From Stylophora pistillata (Eukaryota): a DNA stretch of 64,000 bases. The notes beneath the pieces were generated by a model that was given only the letters and a program-made list of their open reading frames with translations, was not told the DNA's origin and searched no databases. The position numbers and the translations under genes were made by a program. The stretch spans positions 30,458 through 94,457 of the forward strand of contig NW_019218142.1 in assembly GCF_002571385.2 (NCBI RefSeq), read 5' to 3'. Positions 1 through 49,120 of this stretch are shown in pieces (within the stretch, counting starts at the first letter, position 1; each line of letters starts with the position of its first letter).

Positions 1-715
1 ATAAAAAAATCTTGAAAATGTAGAAGGAGCGTTCCGTACTAGAAATTTCTTCCACTCAAAAATACTTTTCTTTAGTTTTACATTTAACATGGAAACGATT
101 TGTAACATTAAATGCTTCTAAACGGTAAGGGGTTTTTTTTTAGCCAAAATGGTGTGGTCGTTTGAATGAAAAATAACTCACTTCCCTCTGTGGGTAGTTT
201 TATCAAAAGTTGTAAATTTTTGTGTGTTGAAATATAGCGTTGCTTACTTTCAATTCTTCATCAAACGAACTGACGTGTTACTTATGGAAAGTAGTTTTGG
301 TTACATCTTTAATTCTAAGATAGTGGACATAACACAAGTGTCTCGACCCTTGATAAATTCCTGTAGTTTTACTTTATTTCTACAACATTCTCGCACCAGG
401 AAATTATGAAAGATTGTTTTCAATGAAAAGTGTCAATTGTTTTGCCATAGCGATTTCGGTCAAAATGGTTGCATATAAGGGTATGTTTTTCCTCGGTTGC
501 AGTAAGTCAGGTGTACCAAAATTTACGCAATTTTTAATAGCTTTCATTTCTCACCTTCAAGAGGTAAAGAATTGACAAAAACCTGAAGAAATATAAGCAG
601 TCAAAATTAGGATTGTGGGTTGCGATAACGTAAACTGGATTAGCAGTAGACAATTTCGATACGAGAGCCATTCTAACTTTTTTTTTCTAATCCTTGTTCT
701 TAATTGCTTTCGTAG

Positions 716-1872
716 GCTTCATGGAGCAAGGACTTCTTGTTCGAGATCCGAAGCAACTCCATCGTAATTACATGCGAAAAATAATTTTTAAATTAGACTG
801 CTTGTCAATAATACCTCTAGACCTGTTCTACTTTGAGGTTGGAATCAACTCGGTAGCATTGAGATTGAACCGCCTTCTGCGCCTGCATCGCATGTTAGAA
901 TTAAGAGCCACGATCGAGACCATTTCAAGATTCCCAAATTTTCTTCGTCTGTGTTCATTAATTGCTATGGTTTTGTTGATCTTTCATTGGAACGCTTGTT
1001 TTTACTTTTTATTGTCAAAATGGATCGGATTTGGATCGGACAGCTGGGTCTACCCGGACTTAACTTCACCGGGTTTCGACTCACTAACTCGACAGTATTT
1101 GTTTAGTTTGTATTGGTCTTCGAGAATGCTTACAACGGGAGAGACGGAAAACCCGCCACAGACTGACGTAGAACTCTTCTTTGTGACTGTCGATTTAACG
1201 GTTGGCTTCTTGGTGTTTGCTGCAATAGTTGGACAGTTTGGAAGCATGATAACACACATGCTGCACGTTCGAAGAGAATTCCTTGAACAAGCCGATGCTG
1301 TGAAACAGTACTTAGTTTTTCATGAGATTGACGCTGATTTGCAAAGACGGGTCGTTTCGTGGTTCAACTACATGTGGGGAACTAAAAAGTCCTCCTTGGA
1401 CCGAGATAATGTTCTCAGTAAACTGCCGCATCCGCTTAAAACTGAAATAGCTGTCCAGGTGCACTTGGAAACTTTGAAAAGGGTACAGGTATTTGCTGAT
1501 GTGGAGCCTGGTCTTTTGAAAGAGATCGTTTTGAAACTTCGCTCGCAAGTCTACTCCCCCGGTGATTTCATCTGCAAAAAGGGTGAGCCGGGAAAAGAGA
1601 TGTACGTAGTGAGTAGCGGTCGACTGCAAGTTGTGCAGGACGACCAAGAAACTGTGATCGCTACCCTGAACGAAGGGAGCTATTTCGGCGAGATAAGTAT
1701 CCTGAATTTATCCAACACTGGAAATCGTCGAACTGCAAACGTTCGCTCCGAAGGATATTCAGAACTACTGTGCTTGTCTAAAGAAGATCTACTCGAGGCT
1801 CTCACGGAATATCCCGAAGCTAGAAAGTTGCTTGAGGTTCGAGGAAGAAGGCTTCTTCGGAGATCGCGATAG
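716..1872 (+). CDS. Cyclic nucleotide-gated cation channel (CNGA-like), last coding exon; 5' exons lie upstream of the window
   Basis: Polypyrimidine tract and acceptor AG at 714-715, then GFMEQGLLVRD. S4 (LRLNRLLRLHR), HWNAC, pore helix, C-linker and CNBD (FGEISIL...RRTANVRS) are present. Stop TAG at 1870-1872; AATAAA at 2378-2383. Confidence 0.93.
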
Positions 1873-3302: not shown

Positions 3303-6300
3303 TTAAGAGATTACACAGCATTTTTTCCCTTCATGATCCCTCTCAACAGTTAGGGCACGCTGTATGTTACACAATTCATGGTGTGTACTCCAGACATCAG
3401 CATGCTCAGGGCCAAGCTTTTTCAATCTAATGTTTAGAGCATGCTCAAAATTCTCCTTGGCCTTAACCAGGTCACCCAATTCACGCTGTACTTCACCCAA
3501 GTTATGGAGTGAAAAAGCCACATAAACGTGGTCAGGTTCAAGATTCTTCATTTGGATGCCTAAAGCACGTTCGTGAAGCTCCTTCGCCTGTTGCACGTTA
3601 TTCATCGCAAATTGTATATTACCCAAGTGATGGTATGAATTCGCCATATCAACATGGTCAGGTCCAAGATTTTTCAGGCGTATAGCCAATGCTTGTTCGT
3701 GACACTTCTTGGCCCGTTGCAGATTACCCAGTTGACTTTCTGCAACACCCAAGTGATGGTATGTATTCGCCATGTCAATATGCTCACATCCAAGATTTTT
3801 TTGGCGTATAGCCAATGCTCGTTCGTAACATTCCTTGGACTTTTGCAGATCACCCAACTGACACTGTACGTAGCCCCAGCTATGGTAAGTAGACGCGACC
3901 TCAGCATGTCCAGGTCCAAGCTTTTTCAACCTTATGTTTAGAGCACGTTCGTAATACTCTGTGGCCTTTTGCCAGTCACCTAAATCACGCTGTACATTAC
4001 CTAAGTCATCGTAAACACGCGCGACATCAACATGCTCGGGTCCAAGCTTTTTCAACATAATGTTTAGGGCACATTCCAAATGTTCCTTGGCCTGTTGCAA
4101 CTCGCCCAATTCACGCTGTAGCATACTCAAGTTATGGTGCGTGGATGCGACGTCATCATGCTCGGGGCCAAGCTTTTTCAATCTAATGTTAAGTGCAAGT
4201 TCATAATTCCCCTTGGCTTTAACCAGGTCACCTAATTCACGATGTGCACTTCCCAATCCTTCGTAGGAAAAAGCCATATAAACATGGTCACGTTCAAGAT
4301 TCTTCAACTGGACTTTTAGAGCACGCTCGTAAAGCTCCTTCGCCTGTTGCGCGTTATTCAAAGCAAATTGAACATTACCCAAATGATGGTATGAATTCGC
4401 TATATCAACATGGTCAGGTCCAAGATTCGTCAAGCGCAAAGCCAATGCTTTTTCGTGATATTCTTTGGTCTGTTTCAGGTTACCCAATTTACTCTGTACC
4501 ACGCCCATGTTAAGGTAAATAGACAGGAGATCAAAGTGCTCGGGTCCAAGCTTCTTCAGTTTAATGTTCAGAGCTCGTTCGTAATATTCCTTGGCCTGTT
4601 GCAGATGCCCCAGTTCACGTTGTACATCACCCAACTCACAGAGTGTATGTGCGACAGGAATATTCTCGGGTCCGAGCTTTTGAAAGCGAATGTCTAGAGC
4701 ACGCTCATAATACTCCTTGGCCCCTTGCAGGTCTCCCAATTCGTATTGCACAACACCCAAGTCAAAGCAGCTACGGGCGACATCAACATGCTCGTTTCCA
4801 AGCGCTTTTAACCTTATGTCCAGAGTGCGTTTAAAATGGTCCTTGGCTCGTTGTAGGTTTCCCAGTTCACTTTCCACCACACCCATGTTACTGAATGAAA
4901 ACGCCACAAAAATATGATCATCACCAAGATTCTTCCTCTGAATTTCTAAGGCACGTTTGTAATACTCCATGGCCTGTTTCAGGTCAACCGAGTTGTGCTG
5001 TACATTACCTAAATGATGATATGTATTTGCAACATCAACATGCTGGGGTCCAAGATGTTTTAGCTGAATGTCTAGAGCACGTTCATGATTCTTCTTGGAA
5101 TTTTTCAAGTCACCCAATTCACGCTGAACCAGACCCAAAACATTGTAAGTAGCCACAAGGGCAACATGTTGGGGTCCAAGTTCGCTAAAGTTAATGTCTA
5201 AAGCACGCTCACAATACACTTTTGCTTCTTGTAGTCCACCCATTTTCCATAGTATAATGCTTAACAGGCTATAGATTTCAGCATGATCTACTCCTCCAGA
5301 AGCTTCACTGTTTTCAACCAGTTTCAAAGCTGTTTCACAGTAAACTTTAGCACCTGAAAATTCACAGTGATTCCGACAGATTACAGCAAGCCTTCTGAAA
5401 TATTCTACTAGATTGGAAAATTTGAATACCTCTTTTTTGATAACTTGATATTTTTCTTCATGAAGGAAGACATTTTCAACTTCGACAGCTAACGCATTTA
5501 AGTGTGAAATGAGATGCTCGCTGTCACAAATAGAGTTTTGCTCGTTCCAAGTTTGTGGTAGGTGAGAGTCTATGAATTGGTTGAAGGACATTACAGCCAG
5601 CGCAACACTTTGACCGTGTTTATCAGTCTCCTGGCACTCGTTGATTACAGATTTGCTGACCTCATGCACAACTCGATGAGTACTGGCAAAAGTACCTTTT
5701 TCTCTTTCCTCGAACATAAAAAGTGAGTAACCTTGGATCTGAAGAGCAATTTCTTCTTTATCCAAAAACAGATTCTTGTCATTCAAAATGTAATTCATAA
5801 CAATGTCTAGATGCAGAGGTTGTGGAGAACATAGCGAAAAGAGTGTAAATGCACTTTTTACAACAGTATCATTGTCTATCGCTCTTTCAATGGCCAGCTT
5901 TGTTGCCACAGTCATGGATTTCCCGTAGCAAGGGTTGGTTTCAATGAGTTTCGTTTCAGTACGGGTTCGCATACCTCTTTCTAGTTTTTCTAAATAATCC
6001 TTCCATCCAAAGTTTCTGTGTACTTGACTTTCACGAACCTTTCTTACGTACACGCCTGCACTAGCCAGTGCGAGAGGTTGGTAATCTAATGCCTCCGCGA
6101 CTTTATCTTCCACCCCTTGTTGTCTAATCCCCGAAACCTTCTGTAAAAAAGAAGTGGCATCTGTGGGCATCATGCCTTTGCTCACTGAGATGTGAGAGAC
6201 AAAGGAGCTTTCAGAGGGGATGGATGAAGTGTTCTGCGTTGTGATAAGCAACTGGCCTTTCGTCCATGGTTCATTTCTGGGCTGAGGGAGAAAATCATTT

Positions 6301-7400
6301 ACTTCCGATAAACTTGTGACATTGTCGACCACCAAGAGCCAAGAACCATAAAGAGGAATTTTGGTTGCTAACAAATCCTTTAGATTGTTAACTTTTTCTT
6401 CAAACTGCATCTTTGTTGAGTTTAGGGTGAACATAACAGTGTGTTCATTGCACTTGATTTGTCTTGCCAAAGAAACGTACGATTCCAAAAGCGTTTTTGA
6501 ACTTTCAGCGTTCAGAGTCATTACGAATGTAGGGGTTTTGAGGTCTATGTTGGCTGCTTCGTAGAATTTCTGAGCTACTAGGCCGGCCAGTTGAGATTTA
6601 CCACTTCCAGGGTTACCGGAAATATATAAGTAACTCAAACCATTTTCATTTGCTTCCCTAAGTCTTTCAAGCTGTTTCGTTATTTTTCCAACCTCGCTCT
6701 CGCGAGGTGCGATTTCGTGCGATGGTTTGGGCGGAAGGATACAGAATGGAGAGACATTTTTAGGTACCTGCTCCTCGAGGTTACGATGATGTTCTTCAAG
6801 GAATTGGCGTTCTTCTTCAGAGATTTGTAGTTTGACATTTGTTACATGTAGTTCTTCGTAAAGGCTTTTAACGTTTTTCCAAACATTTTCCAGTTCCTCC
6901 GTCGGAAAACTTTTCTGCTTGAAGATATGTTTAATCTCAGTGGTGGAAAGACTAAGACACTGAAATGCGTACTCGACTTTACGAACGGCGAGTATGAACT
7001 GTAGATCTGGTAGCTGACCATGCGGCATGTGAGCGAACTCTTCATTGCGAAACTCTCTGAGATCATCGGCATTCGAGCGGACTGCTGCACCGAGTCCGCG
7101 GCCAATAGAATCAGAGTAAAGGATTGCAAAAAAGAGTGTAGTACAATCCCACTTCGCCCTGTTTCCGTTTCTTATCGTTTCTAGCAGACGTGCATTTCGT
7201 GTTCGGCTCCGAGCAGATTCTCTGTTGTAGAAGTCCAGTCCATTTTGAGGTGTATCTTTCCATTCTCCCAACGTTGCCTGCTAACGACTGTCCCATTCTT
7301 GTTTGAAAAGGGATCGCAGCCCTTGTGGTAGTATATCAGTGACTATATGACAAATCCTGAAGTAGTTTAGCTTCTCTCGAGTGTAGACTGGGCAGGCCAT
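3303..7400 (-). CDS. NLR-like protein: N-terminal DZIP3-like HEPN domain, STAND (NB-ARC-like) NTPase, ~16 42-aa TPR repeats, C-terminal CaaX. Interrupted by one in-frame TAG at codon 40 (7281-7283).
   Basis: ATG at 7400 reads [48 protein letters not shown], in frame with the 1322-aa ORF. HEPN motif RNEEFAH at 7029-7049. Walker A GNPGSGKS, Walker B WLLVVDN, sensor LLITTQ, GLPL-like YQPLAL. Repeats of the form LGPEHxDVAxxYxxLGxVxxxLGDL. Ends KKCCVIS. Confidence 0.88.
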
Positions 7401-8275
7401 AATTTCTCTGTCGGGGACATCCTTTTGAGCTTTTTAACCCTGTTCGAAAACGACGTGAAACCTTTTTCAATTGTATTAGGTGCATACGAACGCGGAATTT
7501 CGCACGGTTCGTAGTTTAATGTACATTTTTAAGTCAACATTATGTGTTGCTGGTTTTATTTTAGTTTTCATCGCACATCAAACATAATAGTGTCAAACGA
7601 TAAAATTGACTGTATCTTATCTAGAAGTATTATGAGAGCTTCCCTATCTTGGAGTTTAAAAAATGAATGGAAATAACATATTACCACAAGCCATTCAGTA
7701 AAATTAAAAATATAAGAAGCTAGTTAATCATTTCCTAATTTTTTTTGGTTCACTTCGCAAGTGGAGTAATTGTTATCGTTTCTTACTGCGATCGTGAATT
7801 TGACACGGAGACAGATGTTTGGTTTCTACGGCAGCTAAAATCTGTGGTAGAGTGTTTCATTTATTTTGCGACAGGCTATGCTTATCATATTTATTAGATC
7901 GATAAATAAGAGAGCAAATTTGATCTCTGGACAGGAATTTCCTGGAAATAACTCTTCTTATATTTTCAATCCCTAGTCTCTCTAGGTTGATTCATGACGA
8001 ATTCCCGATCAAGAAAATAATTCCTGAATCTTAAACTTGGCACGTTCAACACCTCTTTCTTTTAAGGTAATTAAAGGTGCAAATAATCCATACTTTTTAT
8101 CCTCCGCACTGAATTTTGTAATTAGGTAACTTGTTTCACAGCACGTTGTTCTTTTAGGGGCAGTACTCTGGGTGCGCCTTTCTTCTCCAAATTCTCTCTT
8201 TATTCTGTTGTTATGTAACAGTCTCTAAACGCTATTTTCTCTTTAGACCCCTATGCCGATAGGTTTACTATAACC

Positions 8276-9840
8276 AAACAACAAACATATGAAATACATA
8301 TATATGAACTGCGGTTATGAAACGTATATGTGCACGATCCTTCGCAGTAAAGCACTATTTAAGCAATAGTGAAAATCAGACCTGAAAAAAATTCAGGCCT
8401 GTACGGGATTCGAACCACTGACCTCTGCGATACTAGTGCAGCGCTCTACCAATTGAGCTAACAAGCCAACTGGGAGCAGGCCATCAAATTAATTCGACAT
8501 AAACCCGTAGATGATAAATCAAACAACAAACATATGAAATACATATATATGAACTGCGGTTATGAAACGTATATGTGCACGATCCTTCGCAGTAAAGCAC
8601 TATTTAAGCAATAGTGAAAATCAGACCTGAAAAAAATTCAGGCCTGTACGGGATTCGAACCACTGACCTCTGCGATACTAGTGCAGCGCTCTACCAATTG
8701 AGCTAACAAGCCAACTGGGAGCAGGCCATCAAATTAATTCGACATAAACCCGTAGATGATAAATCAAACAACAAACATATGAAATACATATATATGAACT
8801 GCGGTTATGAAACGTATATGTGCACGATCCTTCGCAGTAAAGCACTATTTAAGCAATAGTGAAAATCAGACCTGAAAAAAATTCAGGCCTGTACGGGATT
8901 CGAACCACTGACCTCTGCGATACTAGTGCAGCGCTCTACCAATTGAGCTAACAAGCCAACTGGGAGCAGGCCATCAAATTAATTCGACATAAACCCGTAG
9001 ATGATAAATCAAACAACAAACATATGAAATACATATATATGAACTGCGGTTATGAAACGTATATGTGCACGATCCTTCGCAGTAAAGCACTATTTAAGCA
9101 ATAGTGAAAATCAGACCTGAAAAAAATTCAGGCCTGTACGGGATTCGAACCACTGACCTCTGCGATACTAGTGCAGCGCTCTACCAATTGAGCTAACAAG
9201 CCAACTGGGAGCAGGCCATCAAATTAATTCGACATAAACCCGTAGATGATAAATCAAACAACAAACATATGAAATACATATATATGAACTGCGGTTATGA
9301 AACGTATATGTGCACGATCCTTCGCAGTAAAGCACTATTTAAGCAATAGTGAAAATCAGACCTGAAAAAAATTCAGGCCTGTACGGGATTCGAACCACTG
9401 ACCTCTGCGATACTAGTGCAGCGCTCTACCAATTGAGCTAACAAGCCAACTGGGAGCAGGCCATCAAATTAATTCGACATAAACCCGTAGNGCAGAGGTC
9501 AGTGGTTCGAATCCCGTACAGGCCTGAATTTTTTTCAGGTCTGATTTTCACTATTGCTTAAATAGTGCTTTACTGCGAAGGATCGTGCACATATACGTTT
9601 CATAACCGCAGTTCATATATATGTATTTCATATGTTTGTTGTTTGATTTATCATCTACGGGTTTATGTCGAATTAATTTGATGGCCTGCTCCCAGTTGGC
9701 TTTTTAGCTCAATTGGTAGAGTGCTGCACTAGTATAGCAGAGGTCAGTGGTTCGAATCCCGTACAGGCCTGAATTTTTTTCAGGTCTGATTTTCACTATT
9801 GCTTAAATAGTGCTTTACTGCGAAGGATCGTGCACATATA
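8276..9840. repeat. Array of a 245-bp tRNA-containing element: 5 tandem minus-strand units (8276-9490), one N, then ~1.4 inverted units (9492-9840)
   Basis: Unit starts at 8276, 8521, 8766, 9011, 9256. The 15-bp direct repeat ATAGGTTTACTATAA flanks the array at 8259-8273 and 9838-9852. Confidence 0.92.
8395..8467 (-). tRNA. tRNA-Thr(AGT)-like module of the repeat, probably a pseudo-tRNA. Further copies at 8640-8712, 8885-8957, 9130-9202, 9375-9447 (-) and 9698-9770, 59317-59389 (+).
   Basis: GGCTTGT-TAGCTCAATTGGTAGAGC-GCTGCA-CTAGTAT-CGCAG-AGGTC-AGTGG-TTCGAAT-CCCGT-ACAGGCC-T folds into a 73-nt cloverleaf with A and B boxes. The T stem and anticodon stem have mismatches. A T7 run follows. Confidence 0.55.
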
Positions 9841-12800
9841 GGTTTACTATAATTTTCATATTGCTAGTCTTGTATTCATTTTACCAGAACTAAACTGGAA
9901 ATAGGAAAATCACGAAGGGGAGCGAGAAACAGAGAACGAAGACGGGAAATTAAATGACTGGCCTGAAATAGAAAGGAAAAGGGAACAAAAGAGAGAAAAT
10001 GAGAATATAGAGTTAGGTTTCCGGTGCTCAACTATTTGAATGCAACTTAAAATCAGTGACCTTAATCACGGCAAAAAGTGCGATTTGTATTTACTTTGTT
10101 TTATGGAAGATAACTACCTTATCGATACTTGATTTCGTGGGTACTCAATTTTGCGATTTTGGCGAGGAAGTATTTGGCGCGCGGGGTTTCATTTTCGCGA
10201 TTTCAAAAAGGCGTTAAATTTCGCGATTCAAGCGATCCCAACTTCATTTTCTCTTTCAACAAGTCTGCAGTTTTTAAAATAACGACATAAATTGGAACAA
10301 GCAAAATGCATATTTAAAAATTGATCTTTAATTAAGTGTATTGCAACACGGATAGGCAGTCTGAGTAGCGTGATTGTGAATTGCTACATCAACCGATTAA
10401 AGACCCTAGAAATTAAGTAACGATGAAGTGCTTATTTTCCGTTTTGGGTTCCACATCTACGAGTTTGGTGTCACTCGTCAGATTTATGATGAAGCTTGCA
10501 GATAGAAGGAAACAAAAGACTTATTTCATGTCTGGCTTAATTCACGAGAATCCGCTTTACGTGGTAAAATTCATCACCATTTATGGTCGCGCAACGCAAG
10601 CGTTCGTAATCTCCATTTTTATAACTTGAATATCTCAGAGATGAACGTGAATGAACGTTTTTCTAAGGGTTCTTCAGAGTGCATGGAGAGGGTCGTGTTG
10701 TAAAAGTTATTTTCAGTTTAATGACTTTGTGTGTTTCCAGTTCGCTGTTTTAAATTTATTCGACACAGACTTTTCAATTTTGCAACTTAAGCACCTTGTT
10801 CTCGCTATGCTTGATTTGTTCGCCTCGCTAGCTTCGCTTTCCCCCAGATGACTCAATTTTCTATTGCAGCCATGGTTTACTTTACTTTACTTTAAACAAT
10901 GAGTTGAAGGTCTCAAAGCTGGTTATTATTTGCAAACGTTTCAAGAAGTTTAAGTTTCTTCTAGTAGCATCACTAATATTCATAGATTGTGGTTGTTTAT
11001 CAGTGACACTTATCATTTGCAATTTACAAGATAAATGAACCGTAAAATAAAGAACGCCGTGATATGATTACGTTATGAAATTTGGAATAAACACTGTACT
11101 TTTTCAGTGTGCTTGATAGTTTACAAATTTTTGACGAAATACTCTATTGTAAATTGACGCGTTAAAGATTGCCTCTTTCCATGCCCCCCTCGCCAACCAC
11201 GACTCCGTCGCTTGAGACATGTTTTCTCAAAATATCACGTATGTAAATATGTGTATGGCCCACCTCTTCAGTCTAGAGTGATTTTGCACCCAAATTCCTG
11301 ATTTAAAGTAAAACAGTTGTCAGGTAATCTTGATGGTTTATCATAAGGTCACTAGACACATCCAAAACACTTTTCCTTGCGGTGAAAAGCACGTCTCAAA
11401 TTCCTCCGCATTCTCAGCTTCTCGCGGGCATGACTTCAACAATGAATTGTGCTTGATATACATATGACTAAATGTGTTTCACATATTTCTGCTAGTAAAA
11501 CTTGTGGTCGCACAACAACAGAAGAATTTTTAAAGTAACCCTTACTCTTTAAGCAGCAAACAGAAGGATTACCATTGTCGAGCGGCGTGAGAGCGTTCTA
11601 GTTCTGCTTTTCTTTTAACTTGTTGTGATAACGTAGTTGTTTCTTTGGATGTGTACAACTTAATTATGACAGTGGAATAATCGATTTTATTGGAAATATT
11701 GCAACAAATGCGACGGAAATTAAACTAAGAGAAGATTCGATTGTAACAGAGATAGCGTGACGATTAAAAAATCAGTCCGATTGATTAAATATATATCTAC
11801 CAAGAAGGAATTTCAGTCAGGAATATTGCATTCCACTCCTTCGGACGAGAGATTTTGAATAGAATTCTAGATTAACTAAACTGCTCATAAACTGACGAGG
11901 TCCGCCAACAAGCACTGCTCAAGAAAACTTTACCCAAACGATGTGTTTGGTTTTTGACCTCGAAATTCAAAAATTTTCCGTGATAACTGTGGTAATGCAT
12001 TATCGCAATTTGATCATCAAGGACTACGACTTCCGATTTCGAAAGAATTTTGTCTGTATCGGTGCAATCCTTCATTCACACTCGACCAATGAAGTAAACT
12101 CGACCATTTTGAAGAGTATGTACTCACCATTTCATATCATTCTACAAATCAGCCATATTATCATCATCCGCAAGAAAAAGAAGGGAAAGTTGAAGAAAAC
12201 CAACCCAGAGTGGACCTCAAGAAACATTTGCTGTATCCCATCAATCCCTCGGGCTCACTACTATTTGACACAGGCAGGCAATACTTACAAAAGAGCTTTA
12301 AGGGTTTAAATAGGCGTCGATATTTTTGGGTGGTACTTAAGAAATTGAATTAACATACTGAAACAGGTTTTTTATAAAGACGGATTATTTTTAAAGCAAA
12401 AATCGATGAAGATCTATTTCTTGCTGTTTATAAACTCATGACGCCATTACTGGGAGCTTGTTAAGACTAACAAGGCCAATACCAGTACATGATCGAGGCT
12501 AAGGCTGAAAATTTATTTAGTATTTATATGAATAAACAAACTCTACAGTTAGGTAGACAGTTTACTGATAACTGCGCGCTTTGCAACTAAAAGGGGTCTT
12601 CTTTGAAGTGCATTTTATTGAAAACAAACGACATTGATAAAACACGCCCTCTGCCAAAGCCAGAAAGAATTGATTTTGATCAGTATAATCCTCCATCATT
12701 AGTGAGATTGCCAGACAGAGAATTTCCCTCTTGTTGAATTATGTTGCACCTCGTCTGAAATAGGTAACTGACTTATAAAAAGATAAAAAAATTTCCCTCT

Positions 12801-47109: not shown

Positions 47110-47503
47110 CGGTAATAATTTACTGAGGAGCCAAAACTCCCGAACTTCTCGATTTTTTGGCCGGAAAATTGAAATTGATTGTGGTCACCACGTGGGAGTT
47201 GAAATGCGCGCGCACAATTTGTTCACTTCCGGTAAAAACTTCAGAGCTCTTTTTTTACAACAAAGATCTTCCTATTTAACATCTCCTTCAAAGAATTTGA
47301 AAATAAGTTATCGAATTTTGATAAAATCCGTATTTATTTTATGAGAGGCTGATTAAACTGAACAAAATCAGTGAAATTTTGTTAGCCGGGTCCGCCATAT
47401 TGAAAATGGTGCAATACTTTTTTTTTCGGACATGTAAGATAGCACGAAAATTCTCATCATGCCCAGTCCCTCTTTCTTGCGCGTATGCCATCTTGAGTTC
47501 ATT
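47110..47503. promoter_or_regulatory. Bidirectional promoter between ABCE1 and the mTERF gene
   Basis: 394 bp between divergent ATGs. NRF1-like TGCGCGCGCA at 47205-47214, ETS CACTTCCGG at 47224-47232, YY1-like CCGCCATAT at 47392-47400. Confidence 0.7.
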
Positions 47504-49120
47504 ATGGCGATCGCGTGGTTTTCTTGTAGGGAATGTTTCACTTGCACGTTATTTAGGCTAAATAGAATCTATCACCTTACTTACCGTACAGATCGCTATT
47601 TCACAACTCCCGGTCTTGGATCTGCTGTTAGCACGAAAGAGGTTAAAGTATCGGAGAAAGGTCTCAGTGTGGATGATGATAGCCAAAAGTCTATCAAGAA
47701 AGATGATCTAAAGTTTCCACGCCACTGGAAGGCAAAAACTCAACAAAAGGTGTCGAGGAGTCAACAAGAAATTCCATCTCATAAAGACTTGAACTTGTAT
47801 CGATATGTGAAGAAGCTGGAAACAACTCTAGGGCGTGGTAAAGGTTCCATTTCGAAAAGATGGTCGTACCTTTTAACAAAATACCTTAAAGCTTACAATA
47901 AGCTGACTTGTTCCACTTCTTTATTATCGGAATCACCCCGGATTCTTGGCCTAACACCAAAACTTCTCGAAGAGAGATTGAATTTCCTCTTCCAGATAGG
48001 TATCACTGGAAGGGATGCCTTGATAATAGCTCTGGAGTTTCCTGCCATTCTTTCGTGGGATTCACCCAACTTTACTGAGATGCTGAAAGTGCTCAAAGAT
48101 TTGAACTGCGATATCGTCGCCTTAATGTTTAAAACACCGTTTGTCTTCAGCCTTGATCAGAGCAGAGTTCAAGAAAATATTCACAAACTTACATCAGCTG
48201 GGATCGCGAAAAACATAATTGGCAAAATCATTTCAAATAACCCTCTCCTTCTTAGCTTCCCACTCAGAGAGCAGTCTTTGGAGATTATTTCCCTTTTGCT
48301 TGATTCGCATAAAACCCTACAATCAGAATTAACAGGCAAGGGTGTAAAGGAAGAGGAGGCGATCTTAAACTTGATCCTTCACTCTGCGGAGAAATTTAAA
48401 GAGCAAGTCGATTTTCAAGAAAATTTTAAAGAAGTCATAAGTTTTCTTGAAGAAATGGAGGTTTCGCCACTTATCATTGCAGTCACAAATCCAGTAATCT
48501 TTTCTACTGATGTTGATACTTTAAGTAACTCTGTGGCATTTTTGAGGAGCAAACCCCTTTTACTTGATATGGAGGCTGTGCAGCACCTTCTGATTACAAA
48601 GCCAGAAATATTTGTAAATTTGGACTCAGTGAAAAACAGGATCCAGTTGCTTTATGATATTGTCCAAAACCCAACAGTACTATACAGTCTTGTTAAAACA
48701 AGACAGTTTTTGTTTGACAGCAAAAATTCAACTGTGGAAGCCATTATCAAATGGTTTCAAGGTAAAGGTATCAAGAACAAAGAGATTGCTCACATCATGA
48801 CGGCAAAGAACTTCTTTTTTCTTGAGAAAGATGAATTGGATGAGAAACTGGATTATCTGTTGTCAAATGATGGGGTGGAAATTGAAGATGTCATAAAACA
48901 TCCTTCATGTCTTTTGAAACCTATTGCCTACCTTAAAGAGAGAGTCGAGTTTGTAAAAGCTGTGAAGCCAGAAGTTCTCAATAACAGAAGCCTTGATGAT
49001 GTTATGGTATCAAAGAATGAACTCTTTTCTAGTGAAGTGTGTGGATCAACACTGGAAAACTACACAAAGTTTGTTCAATCTCTGAACAAGGAGCTTGCTA
49101 AGGCTGGCAAAAAGAAGTGA
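47504..49120 (+). CDS. mTERF-family mitochondrial protein, single coding exon, ~538 aa
   Basis: Long ORF with recurring mTERF-type units (SPRILGLTPKLLEERLNFL, FPAILS, TPFVFS, NPLLLS, HPSCLL...LKERVEFV) and a basic N-terminus. The ATG at 47504 has better context than the one at 47459. Confidence 0.82.
   Translation: MAIAWFSCRECFTCTLFRLNRIYHLTYRTDRYFTTPGLGSAVSTKEVKVSEKGLSVDDDSQKSIKKDDLKFPRHWKAKTQQKVSRSQQEIPSHKDLNLYRYVKKLETTLGRGKGSISKRWSYLLTKYLKAYNKLTCSTSLLSESPRILGLTPKLLEERLNFLFQIGITGRDALIIALEFPAILSWDSPNFTEMLKVLKDLNCDIVALMFKTPFVFSLDQSRVQENIHKLTSAGIAKNIIGKIISNNPLLLSFPLREQSLEIISLLLDSHKTLQSELTGKGVKEEEAILNLILHSAEKFKEQVDFQENFKEVISFLEEMEVSPLIIAVTNPVIFSTDVDTLSNSVAFLRSKPLLLDMEAVQHLLITKPEIFVNLDSVKNRIQLLYDIVQNPTVLYSLVKTRQFLFDSKNSTVEAIIKWFQGKGIKNKEIAHIMTAKNFFFLEKDELDEKLDYLLSNDGVEIEDVIKHPSCLLKPIAYLKERVEFVKAVKPEVLNNRSLDDVMVSKNELFSSEVCGSTLENYTKFVQSLNKELAKAGKKK

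Follow-up and report, generated by a model that had tools for sequence, protein, structure and literature searches.

A spliced coral STAND receptor gene with a HEPN-like head and a predicted prenylation signal at its C-terminus

The receptor gene and its neighbours

The window analysed here is a stretch of 64,000 nucleotides from the stony coral Stylophora pistillata (contig NW_019218142.1), and lies in a genome of 397.6 Mb, labelled G000. Homologous proteins are denoted by P, genomic stretches around a family match by L, and public RNA runs by X. On the minus strand, an open frame of 1325 codons (3303-7280) ends in the residues GKKCCVIS. The start codon was placed upstream of the reading frame used in a first-pass annotation of this DNA: an ATG at 7400 (7398-7400, minus strand; MACPVY...), also used by the homologues P0002 and P0023, gives a protein of 1365 amino acids. 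Between this start and the open frame, codon 40 (7281-7283, minus strand) is an in-frame TAG found only in this assembly. RNA contigs were obtained from 8 of the 24 public runs listed. One of them, X17, had no cover at 7281, and the seven covering runs all read TAC, coding for Tyr (45 of 82 depth units in X3). The TAG therefore marks either a null allele or a mistake in the assembly, and a pseudogene reading holds for codon 40 of this assembly alone.

The 3' end of the frame had been read correctly in the first-pass annotation. GKKCCVIS lies at 3306-3329 and is followed directly by the TAA stop at 3303-3305 (minus strand). The tail is spanned by single long contigs in 4/4 runs (X3, X17, X2 and X9), and the letters in which these contigs differ (3, 5, 9 and 1, respectively) all fall outside 3303-3330. 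An artefact from a missed intron was ruled out, as the RNA contigs cross the tail without a joint. These four unchanged crossings indicate that CVIS is the real end of the expressed protein in other individuals. Upstream of the coding region, a GT-AG intron of 4688 nt (7440-12127, minus strand) interrupts the 5' UTR. Its joint, from about 7438-7440 to 12127, was present in contigs of X6, X10 and X15 (3/4 runs), demonstrating that the gene is spliced and transcribed; a loose contig end was found at 7440 in X2. The RNA contigs further define a non-coding first exon at 12128-12240 (minus strand), of which the 5' limit is loose.

The intron harbours, at about 8270-9830, a tandem array whose unit of 245 bp contains an element resembling tRNA-Thr(AGT), in five minus-strand copies and one inverted copy beyond a single N. 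Its very high depth in the contigs of the RNA runs suggests that the array is likely a tRNA-derived repeat. A single-frame cyclic-nucleotide-gated channel gene (691-1872, plus strand) converges on the receptor gene. Single-exon 7TM receptor-like frames are clustered at 13056-19133, 31082-32140 and 35925-36947 (minus strand; one confirmed 7tm_1), and an mTERF gene is located at 47438-49120 (plus strand). A second immune-type gene or cluster occupies 20217-26815 on the minus strand, consisting of a canonical DZIP3-like HEPN frame (26198-26815, E 8e-37), a TRADD-like N-terminal frame (24099-24824) and a TPR frame of 824 aa that lacks a CaaX (20217-22691); no STAND frame was seen between these parts.

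An NB-ARC-TPR protein with a HEPN-like head

The central part of the window protein is a STAND NTPase of the Apaf-1/CED-4/NB-ARC type (5661-6758, minus strand), recognized by its motifs and by a fold match. From N- to C-terminus, these motifs are a Walker A (GNPGSGKS, 6594-6617), a Walker B (LLVVDN, 6321-6338), a sensor-1 strand (LITTQ, 6234-6248), a GxP-like motif (YQPLAL, 6066-6083) and a winged-helix motif (HRVVHE, 5661-5678). Across 56 aligned sequences, the Walker A, Walker B, ITTQ strand, QPLAL and the His of the winged helix are conserved. The best folds for the structural model of P0284 (pLDDT 90) were Apaf-1, CED-4 and plant NLR NB-ARC domains, with E-values of about 1e-10 to 1e-8. 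P0284, an N-terminal fragment, belongs to the same cluster as P0002, the nearest homologue, which is 77% identical to the window protein. The C-terminal half is a TPR array (residues 705-1350; 3351-5288, minus strand), for which a 42-residue profile of our own gave about 16 repeats, i.e., 14 full or nearly full ones and a partial one at each end. Pfam searches of the window protein found TPR_12 and TPR_10 repeats and weak P-loop matches, with no match to LRR or NACHT. By its sequence, the protein is a member of the NB-ARC-TPR class of STAND proteins, not a canonical NACHT-LRR NLR. It would work like an NLR, with NB-ARC and TPRs as its domains. The ATPase fold is common to Apaf-1, CED-4 and the NB-ARC of plant CNL proteins, and bacterial PH0952-type STAND-TPR proteins were grouped with the coral protein by their likeness in ATPase and TPRs.

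The first 165 residues, which were overlooked in the first-pass annotation, form a helical, HEPN-like domain (6906-7400, minus strand) that is likely the effector. It was examined by alignment, fold search, Pfam and dimer prediction. An RN-x3-5-H motif, in keeping with the R-x4-6-H of HEPN RNases, is present in 48/56 aligned relatives and reads RNEEFAH in the window protein (7029-7049). The top two structural matches among 48,161 chains (VIA) were the HEPN RNases Csm6 (Z 7.8, rmsd 3.6, 117 aligned) and AbiF (Z 6.9, rmsd 5.7, 155 aligned), with Z below 8 in both cases and hence not decisive for helical bundles. With the head alone, Foldseek gave no match at E 0.001. Pfam searches with 33 aligned heads found HEPN_DZIP3 in 18/33 (best E 3e-5) and HEPN_Swt1 in 12/33, at low scores that lie below the HEPN_DZIP3 cut-off. 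A profile comparison between the head and the canonical DZIP3-like HEPN of the window gave a weak match (probability 1%).

HEPN RNases assemble their active site from two copies. The head of the paralogue L032 was predicted to dimerise. It scored 0.69, and the best of three controls reached 0.00; the runs agreed on at least 94% of the contacts at pLDDT 91-92. The same dimer mark was reached by 17/29 eukaryote pairs and 0/30 single chains, and the prediction for L032 may reflect solved HEPN dimers known to the model. The predicted contacts involve helix 1 and residues 123-129, in the loop next to the motif His. The window protein probably belongs to the HEPN proteins, and its head is likely an RNase effector of the HEPN type.

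The layout HEPN - NB-ARC - TPR has already been listed for corals (PMC10236652, PMC3710099, PMC8260672), and HEPN families were described in PMC3710099. The coral genes of DZIP3-like HEPN - NB-ARC - TPR type (PMC10236652, Additional files 16/17, e.g., OG0000193) share domain order and lineage with the window family, and both are expanded and contain often broken copies. The window head differs in that it falls below the Pfam cut-off for HEPN_DZIP3 and also resembles HEPN_Swt1. Within the accessible parts of PMC10236652, a C-terminal CaaX is unmentioned, and in the 12/17 supplement files searched CaaX occurs only in protease names. Coral NB-ARC-TPR genes are catalogued by the hundreds, and the literature examined gives no location, ligand or output for them.

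CaaX ends in the window protein and its family

The window protein ends in the CaaX box C-V-I-S (residues 1362-1365; 3306-3317, minus strand), with Cys fourth from the true C-terminus, an aliphatic a2 and Ser as X. CaaX boxes with X = S are substrates of farnesyltransferase, and X = L, F or I favours geranylgeranyltransferase I. The first-pass annotation had called CVIS a farnesyltransferase motif, which agrees with human ZAP-L, where the same four residues are a proven farnesylation signal (PMC8568172, accessible text). The family members P0099 and P0102 end in CTIL, identical to the geranylgeranylated end of OAS1 p46, which is necessary and sufficient for the Golgi location of that protein (PMC8357416, accessible text). 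Prenyltransferase-alpha repeats are encoded in G000, and an mCherry-CaaX reporter labelled cell membranes and, strongly, symbiosome membranes in Aiptasia (PMC6219564, accessible text). Given the proven human signals, the prenyltransferase-alpha repeats of G000 and the reporter, it is highly probable that the window protein is farnesylated, as its tail sequence predicts.

A second membrane signal, formed by the adjacent Cys and basic residues, had also been proposed for this tail. Yeast Ras2-type tails have the form CC-aliphatic-aliphatic-S, which the window protein matches, and the P0029 group ends in CCIIS. Unlike Ras2, the coral protein has no GTPase domain, and its Cys at -5 is not conserved in the nearest relatives: in the orthologue cluster, 4/5 full-length members have R at this position, and the paralogue L064 has Y. 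A conserved palmitoylatable Cys beside the CaaX, as in Ras2 or H-Ras, is accordingly absent as a fixed feature among these relatives, and a polybasic run of the K-Ras4B type is absent as well, with just KK amid acidic residues before the CaaX. The variation of the adjacent Cys (C, R or Y) makes the Ras-like two-signal reading weak.

The CaaX box itself is kept in 5/6 near-full-length members of the orthologue cluster among those listed. At the DNA level, the tails of the window, L034b and L064 form one homologous lineage, whose CaaX codons show synonymous changes or an I/V exchange and no others, and whose linkers differ by in-frame gaps of 36 and 24 nt. The short linker of the window protein (3318-3350, minus strand), which carries the Cys at -5 and KK, is 36 nt shorter than that of L034b, with the frame kept. 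The TPR DNA profile stops 41 nt before the stop codon of the gene and nothing was matched behind it, which leaves an origin of this tail from a shifted TPR repeat without support. Conservation of the motif across the C-termini of relatives, proposed as a check on the first-pass reading, was observed for the orthologue cluster and three paralogues and failed for the nearest database matches, of which 1/20 has CaaX. A 15-member Pocillopora-type group (64-71% identity) stops at HGMER/HGTER-like residues before the point from which P0002 runs on to CVIS. P0003 has a linker as in P0002, but its end looks like another reading frame. The ends of P0003, P0042, P0087 and P0376 resemble frameshifted or read-through versions of sister CaaX tails and may represent alleles or sequencing errors.

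The wider family was surveyed with 269 proteins (the query and 120 matches, then 148 further representatives), with named homologues from the stony corals Pocillopora, Stylophora, Porites, Acropora, Montipora and Oculina and also from sea anemones. Cys occupies -4 in 25 of the first 121 proteins, and CC tails occur in 8. From the full set, 186/269 proteins with at least two TPRs and no X were kept, and clustering of their last 25 residues at 60% identity left 147 distinct tails. Cys stands at -4 in 22/147 of these, whereas other positions average 2.5% (P 1.6e-11), and the Cys peak is confined to -4/-5. Of the 22 tails, 17 have I, L or V at a2, and X is L in 10 and S in 4. A strict CaaX pattern was found in 18/147 tails and in 0-3 when slid 1-15 residues inward; as truncation or frameshift of the gene model accounts for many of the non-CaaX ends, these shares may differ among intact genes. 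All strict cases belong to the 92 tails longer than 12 residues (18/92); the 55 tails that finish within a repeat or directly behind one contain no such case.

Such ends could also be unused, neutral by-products of the rapid turnover of TPR arrays through frameshifts and new stops. Shifted TPR frames are a fair null for ends made by frameshift, and strict CaaX was found there at 9/453 stops (2%), against 55/9146 ends of other reading frames (0.6%). This threefold excess over random frames means that some tails may be accidental. The observed 18/147 (12%) nevertheless exceeds the shifted-frame share with P 1.1e-9, a value to be read with the pattern having been composed after inspection of the tails, the set including the query and its orthologue, and the tails being partly dependent. 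The motif has often been lost, being absent from most family members, and sister copies carry Tyr (L043, L053) or Ser (L069) in place of Cys, as expected for neutral ends. It is, however, kept in all listed members of clusters 3 and 6 (15/15 and 15/15) and in a pair at 56% identity that retains KGCVVM and KGCTIM, and the frame-preserving deletions and synonymous changes in the tail lineage of the window protein point in the same direction. We therefore regard the by-product explanation as improbable, and prefer to see the CaaX, from these sequence comparisons, as a real, family-wide but patchy feature.

Nine terminal frames in 8/58 stretches of G000 around family matches end in Cys-x-x-x. At the DNA level, L034a, L071, L043 and L053 form a second tail lineage, and L037, L038, L040, L051 and L066 match none of the others. 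The stretches L034, L071, L043 and L053 (G000 C120, C282, C217 and C2493) have decayed TPR DNA behind a KC/KY-S-x-Q/H tail. Such decayed DNA behind the stop was seen in this CSVQ group only; it is the pattern that the by-product explanation would predict, and it suggests that the stop of this group arose inside an older TPR array. Cys and Tyr versions coexist in the group. In 20 further stretches from other TPR families of G000, no CaaX end was found, but most of them are gapped or have domains after the TPRs and are thus uninformative as a control.

In a FastTree phylogeny of 193 STAND domains, with truncated gene models blurring the labels, CaaX members are scattered over many separate branches, and the linkers of CaaX tails have a mean identity of 7%. 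Both farnesyl-type ends (CVIS, CIIS, CVVM) and geranylgeranyl-type ends (CTIL, CIIL, CQLL) occur in the family. An upstream Cys at -5 to -9 is enriched in strict CaaX tails (7/18 vs 15/125, p 0.008), and basic clusters before the CaaX are not (6/18 vs 27/125, p 0.37). A second, deeper-branching set obtained with an anemone query had strict CaaX in 4/48 distinct tails (P 0.015). The sole anemone case is Actinia P0154, a single gene model ending in CSIL; the motif is absent in 3 close paralogues and 5 other anemone proteins.

Membrane targeting and possible roles of the receptors

STAND proteins oligomerise upon ligand binding. We consider it fairly probable that this spliced coral gene encodes a STAND protein, likely farnesylated through CVIS, that is held on a membrane and acts as a ligand-switched HEPN RNase. 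Farnesylation of CVIS would hold the protein on the cytosolic face of a membrane, with the lipid fixing the tip of the TPR arm there, and the other family members with CaaX tails are likely tethered in the same manner, as predicted from their ends. The TPR arm may bind a foreign or altered protein at that membrane, candidates being the endosome, the phagosome, a viral replication membrane, the plasma membrane and the symbiosome. Binding would then lead to STAND oligomerisation, as in the bacterial Avs proteins, which likewise combine a TPR sensor with an N-terminal enzyme effector (PMC13581612, accessible text), the coral effector being HEPN-like. The oligomer would pair the HEPN heads and thereby cause local RNA cleavage or cell killing.

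Against tethering stands the weak membrane binding of a farnesyl group alone (PMC8568172, accessible text). If the tail is prenylated, its lipid may instead signal for trafficking, chaperones or turnover rather than serve membrane survey, or it may keep a dangerous RNase on membranes until its release. The second signal is weak and variable, and many paralogues manage without a tail. The ZAP study also proposes membrane assembly as an alternative to surveillance (PMC8568172, accessible text). These points fit a trafficking or parking role, but the enrichment of an upstream Cys suggests that some family members are bound stably to membranes by extra acylation, and the occurrence of both farnesyl- and geranylgeranyl-type X is expected if different compartments are addressed. 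In our judgement such a role is unlikely, and we favour membrane survey by a tethered receptor.

The identity of the membrane bears on a further proposal, in which the receptor would be an adaptation to symbiosis that watches the symbiosome membrane through a Ras2-like double anchor of farnesyl and palmitoyl. It draws on the strong reporter label of symbiosome membranes in Aiptasia, on the CC tails in 8/121 proteins, and on NLRs having been put forward as modulators of symbiosis (PMC8260672, accessible text). The -5 Cys is, however, R or Y in the nearest relatives, one CaaX member comes from Actinia tenebrosa, which we take to be a species without algal symbionts, and an RNase head is no worse a fit to antiviral defence or to cell death. 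We rate this proposal as the least probable of the explanations considered. Weighing these points, the symbiosome is plausible as one candidate membrane among several, with no pointer specific to it.

The membrane-held receptor proposed here can be compared with known membrane-bound immune proteins. The first-pass annotation held a lipid anchor to be unusual for STAND receptors, which is not so: NOD1 and NOD2 reach the plasma membrane and phagosomes through S-acylation (PMC10585062, accessible text). These are NACHT-LRR proteins with a reversible, internal S-acylation by zDHHC5, in contrast to the predicted irreversible C-terminal prenyl group of the coral NB-ARC-TPR protein. The C-terminal prenyl route looks undescribed for STAND receptors. 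In the literature searched, with few subscription papers among it, no NLR or STAND protein was found to be described as prenylated, and the terms prenyl, farnesyl and CaaX are all absent from a 2025 review of NLR acylation (PMC12326153). A connexin-NLR preprint that appeared to be a CaaX precedent was rejected, as "CaaX" is a plasmid name there. If correct, C-terminal prenylation would join the known routes by which STAND receptors reach membranes. As for the relatives in ATPase fold or TPRs, we know of no CaaX end in Apaf-1, CED-4, plant CNL, Avs or PH0952-type proteins.

Closer counterparts of the tail are found in ZAP-L (PARP13) and OAS1 p46, RNA-directed antiviral proteins that carry the same tails as the coral family and for which tailed and tailless forms coexist. 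CVIS of ZAP-L is S-farnesylated and directs the protein to intracellular vesicles and endomembranes, and its antiviral activity depends on it (PMC8568172, accessible text). These proteins are not homologous to the coral receptors. As sensors of RNA, they act through a separate nuclease, which they recruit or activate; in the coral protein, sensor, ATPase switch and likely nuclease are located in one chain. The choice of tail also differs, being made between isoforms in ZAP-L/ZAP-S and OAS1 p46/p42 and by paralogue or allele in the coral family. As the tail is gained or lost, coral paralogues that differ in their TPR arrays could be set to survey either membranes or the cytosol, much as these isoform pairs do. 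The tail, proven in human antiviral proteins, provides a direct handle on the location of the coral receptor, including the symbiosome, and the architecture would, if correct, unite membrane targeting and RNA destruction in a single chain. Tentatively, and with somewhat less than even confidence, this may be extended to a large anthozoan family of single-chain sensor-switch-RNase STAND receptors in which prenyl signals were repeatedly gained and lost. Farnesyl and geranylgeranyl types and extra Cys residues would address paralogues to different membranes, such as viral replication membranes, phagosomes or the symbiosome, TPR turnover would supply the tails, and the outcome would be a prenylated class of NLR-like receptors, convergent with ZAP-L and OAS1 p46.

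A link between this family and RNA is also seen in P0196 (2123 aa), where HEPN-like head, STAND domain and TPRs are followed by ankyrin repeats, a protein kinase and a Ribonuclease 2-5A domain. Judging from its domain order, P0196 could be an RNase L-like module on a STAND receptor, or maybe a mis-joined gene model; a fusion to the RNase L nuclease would fit an RNA-directed defence. Another family member, P0191, carries an additional N-terminal PNP_UDP_1 (nucleosidase-like) domain.
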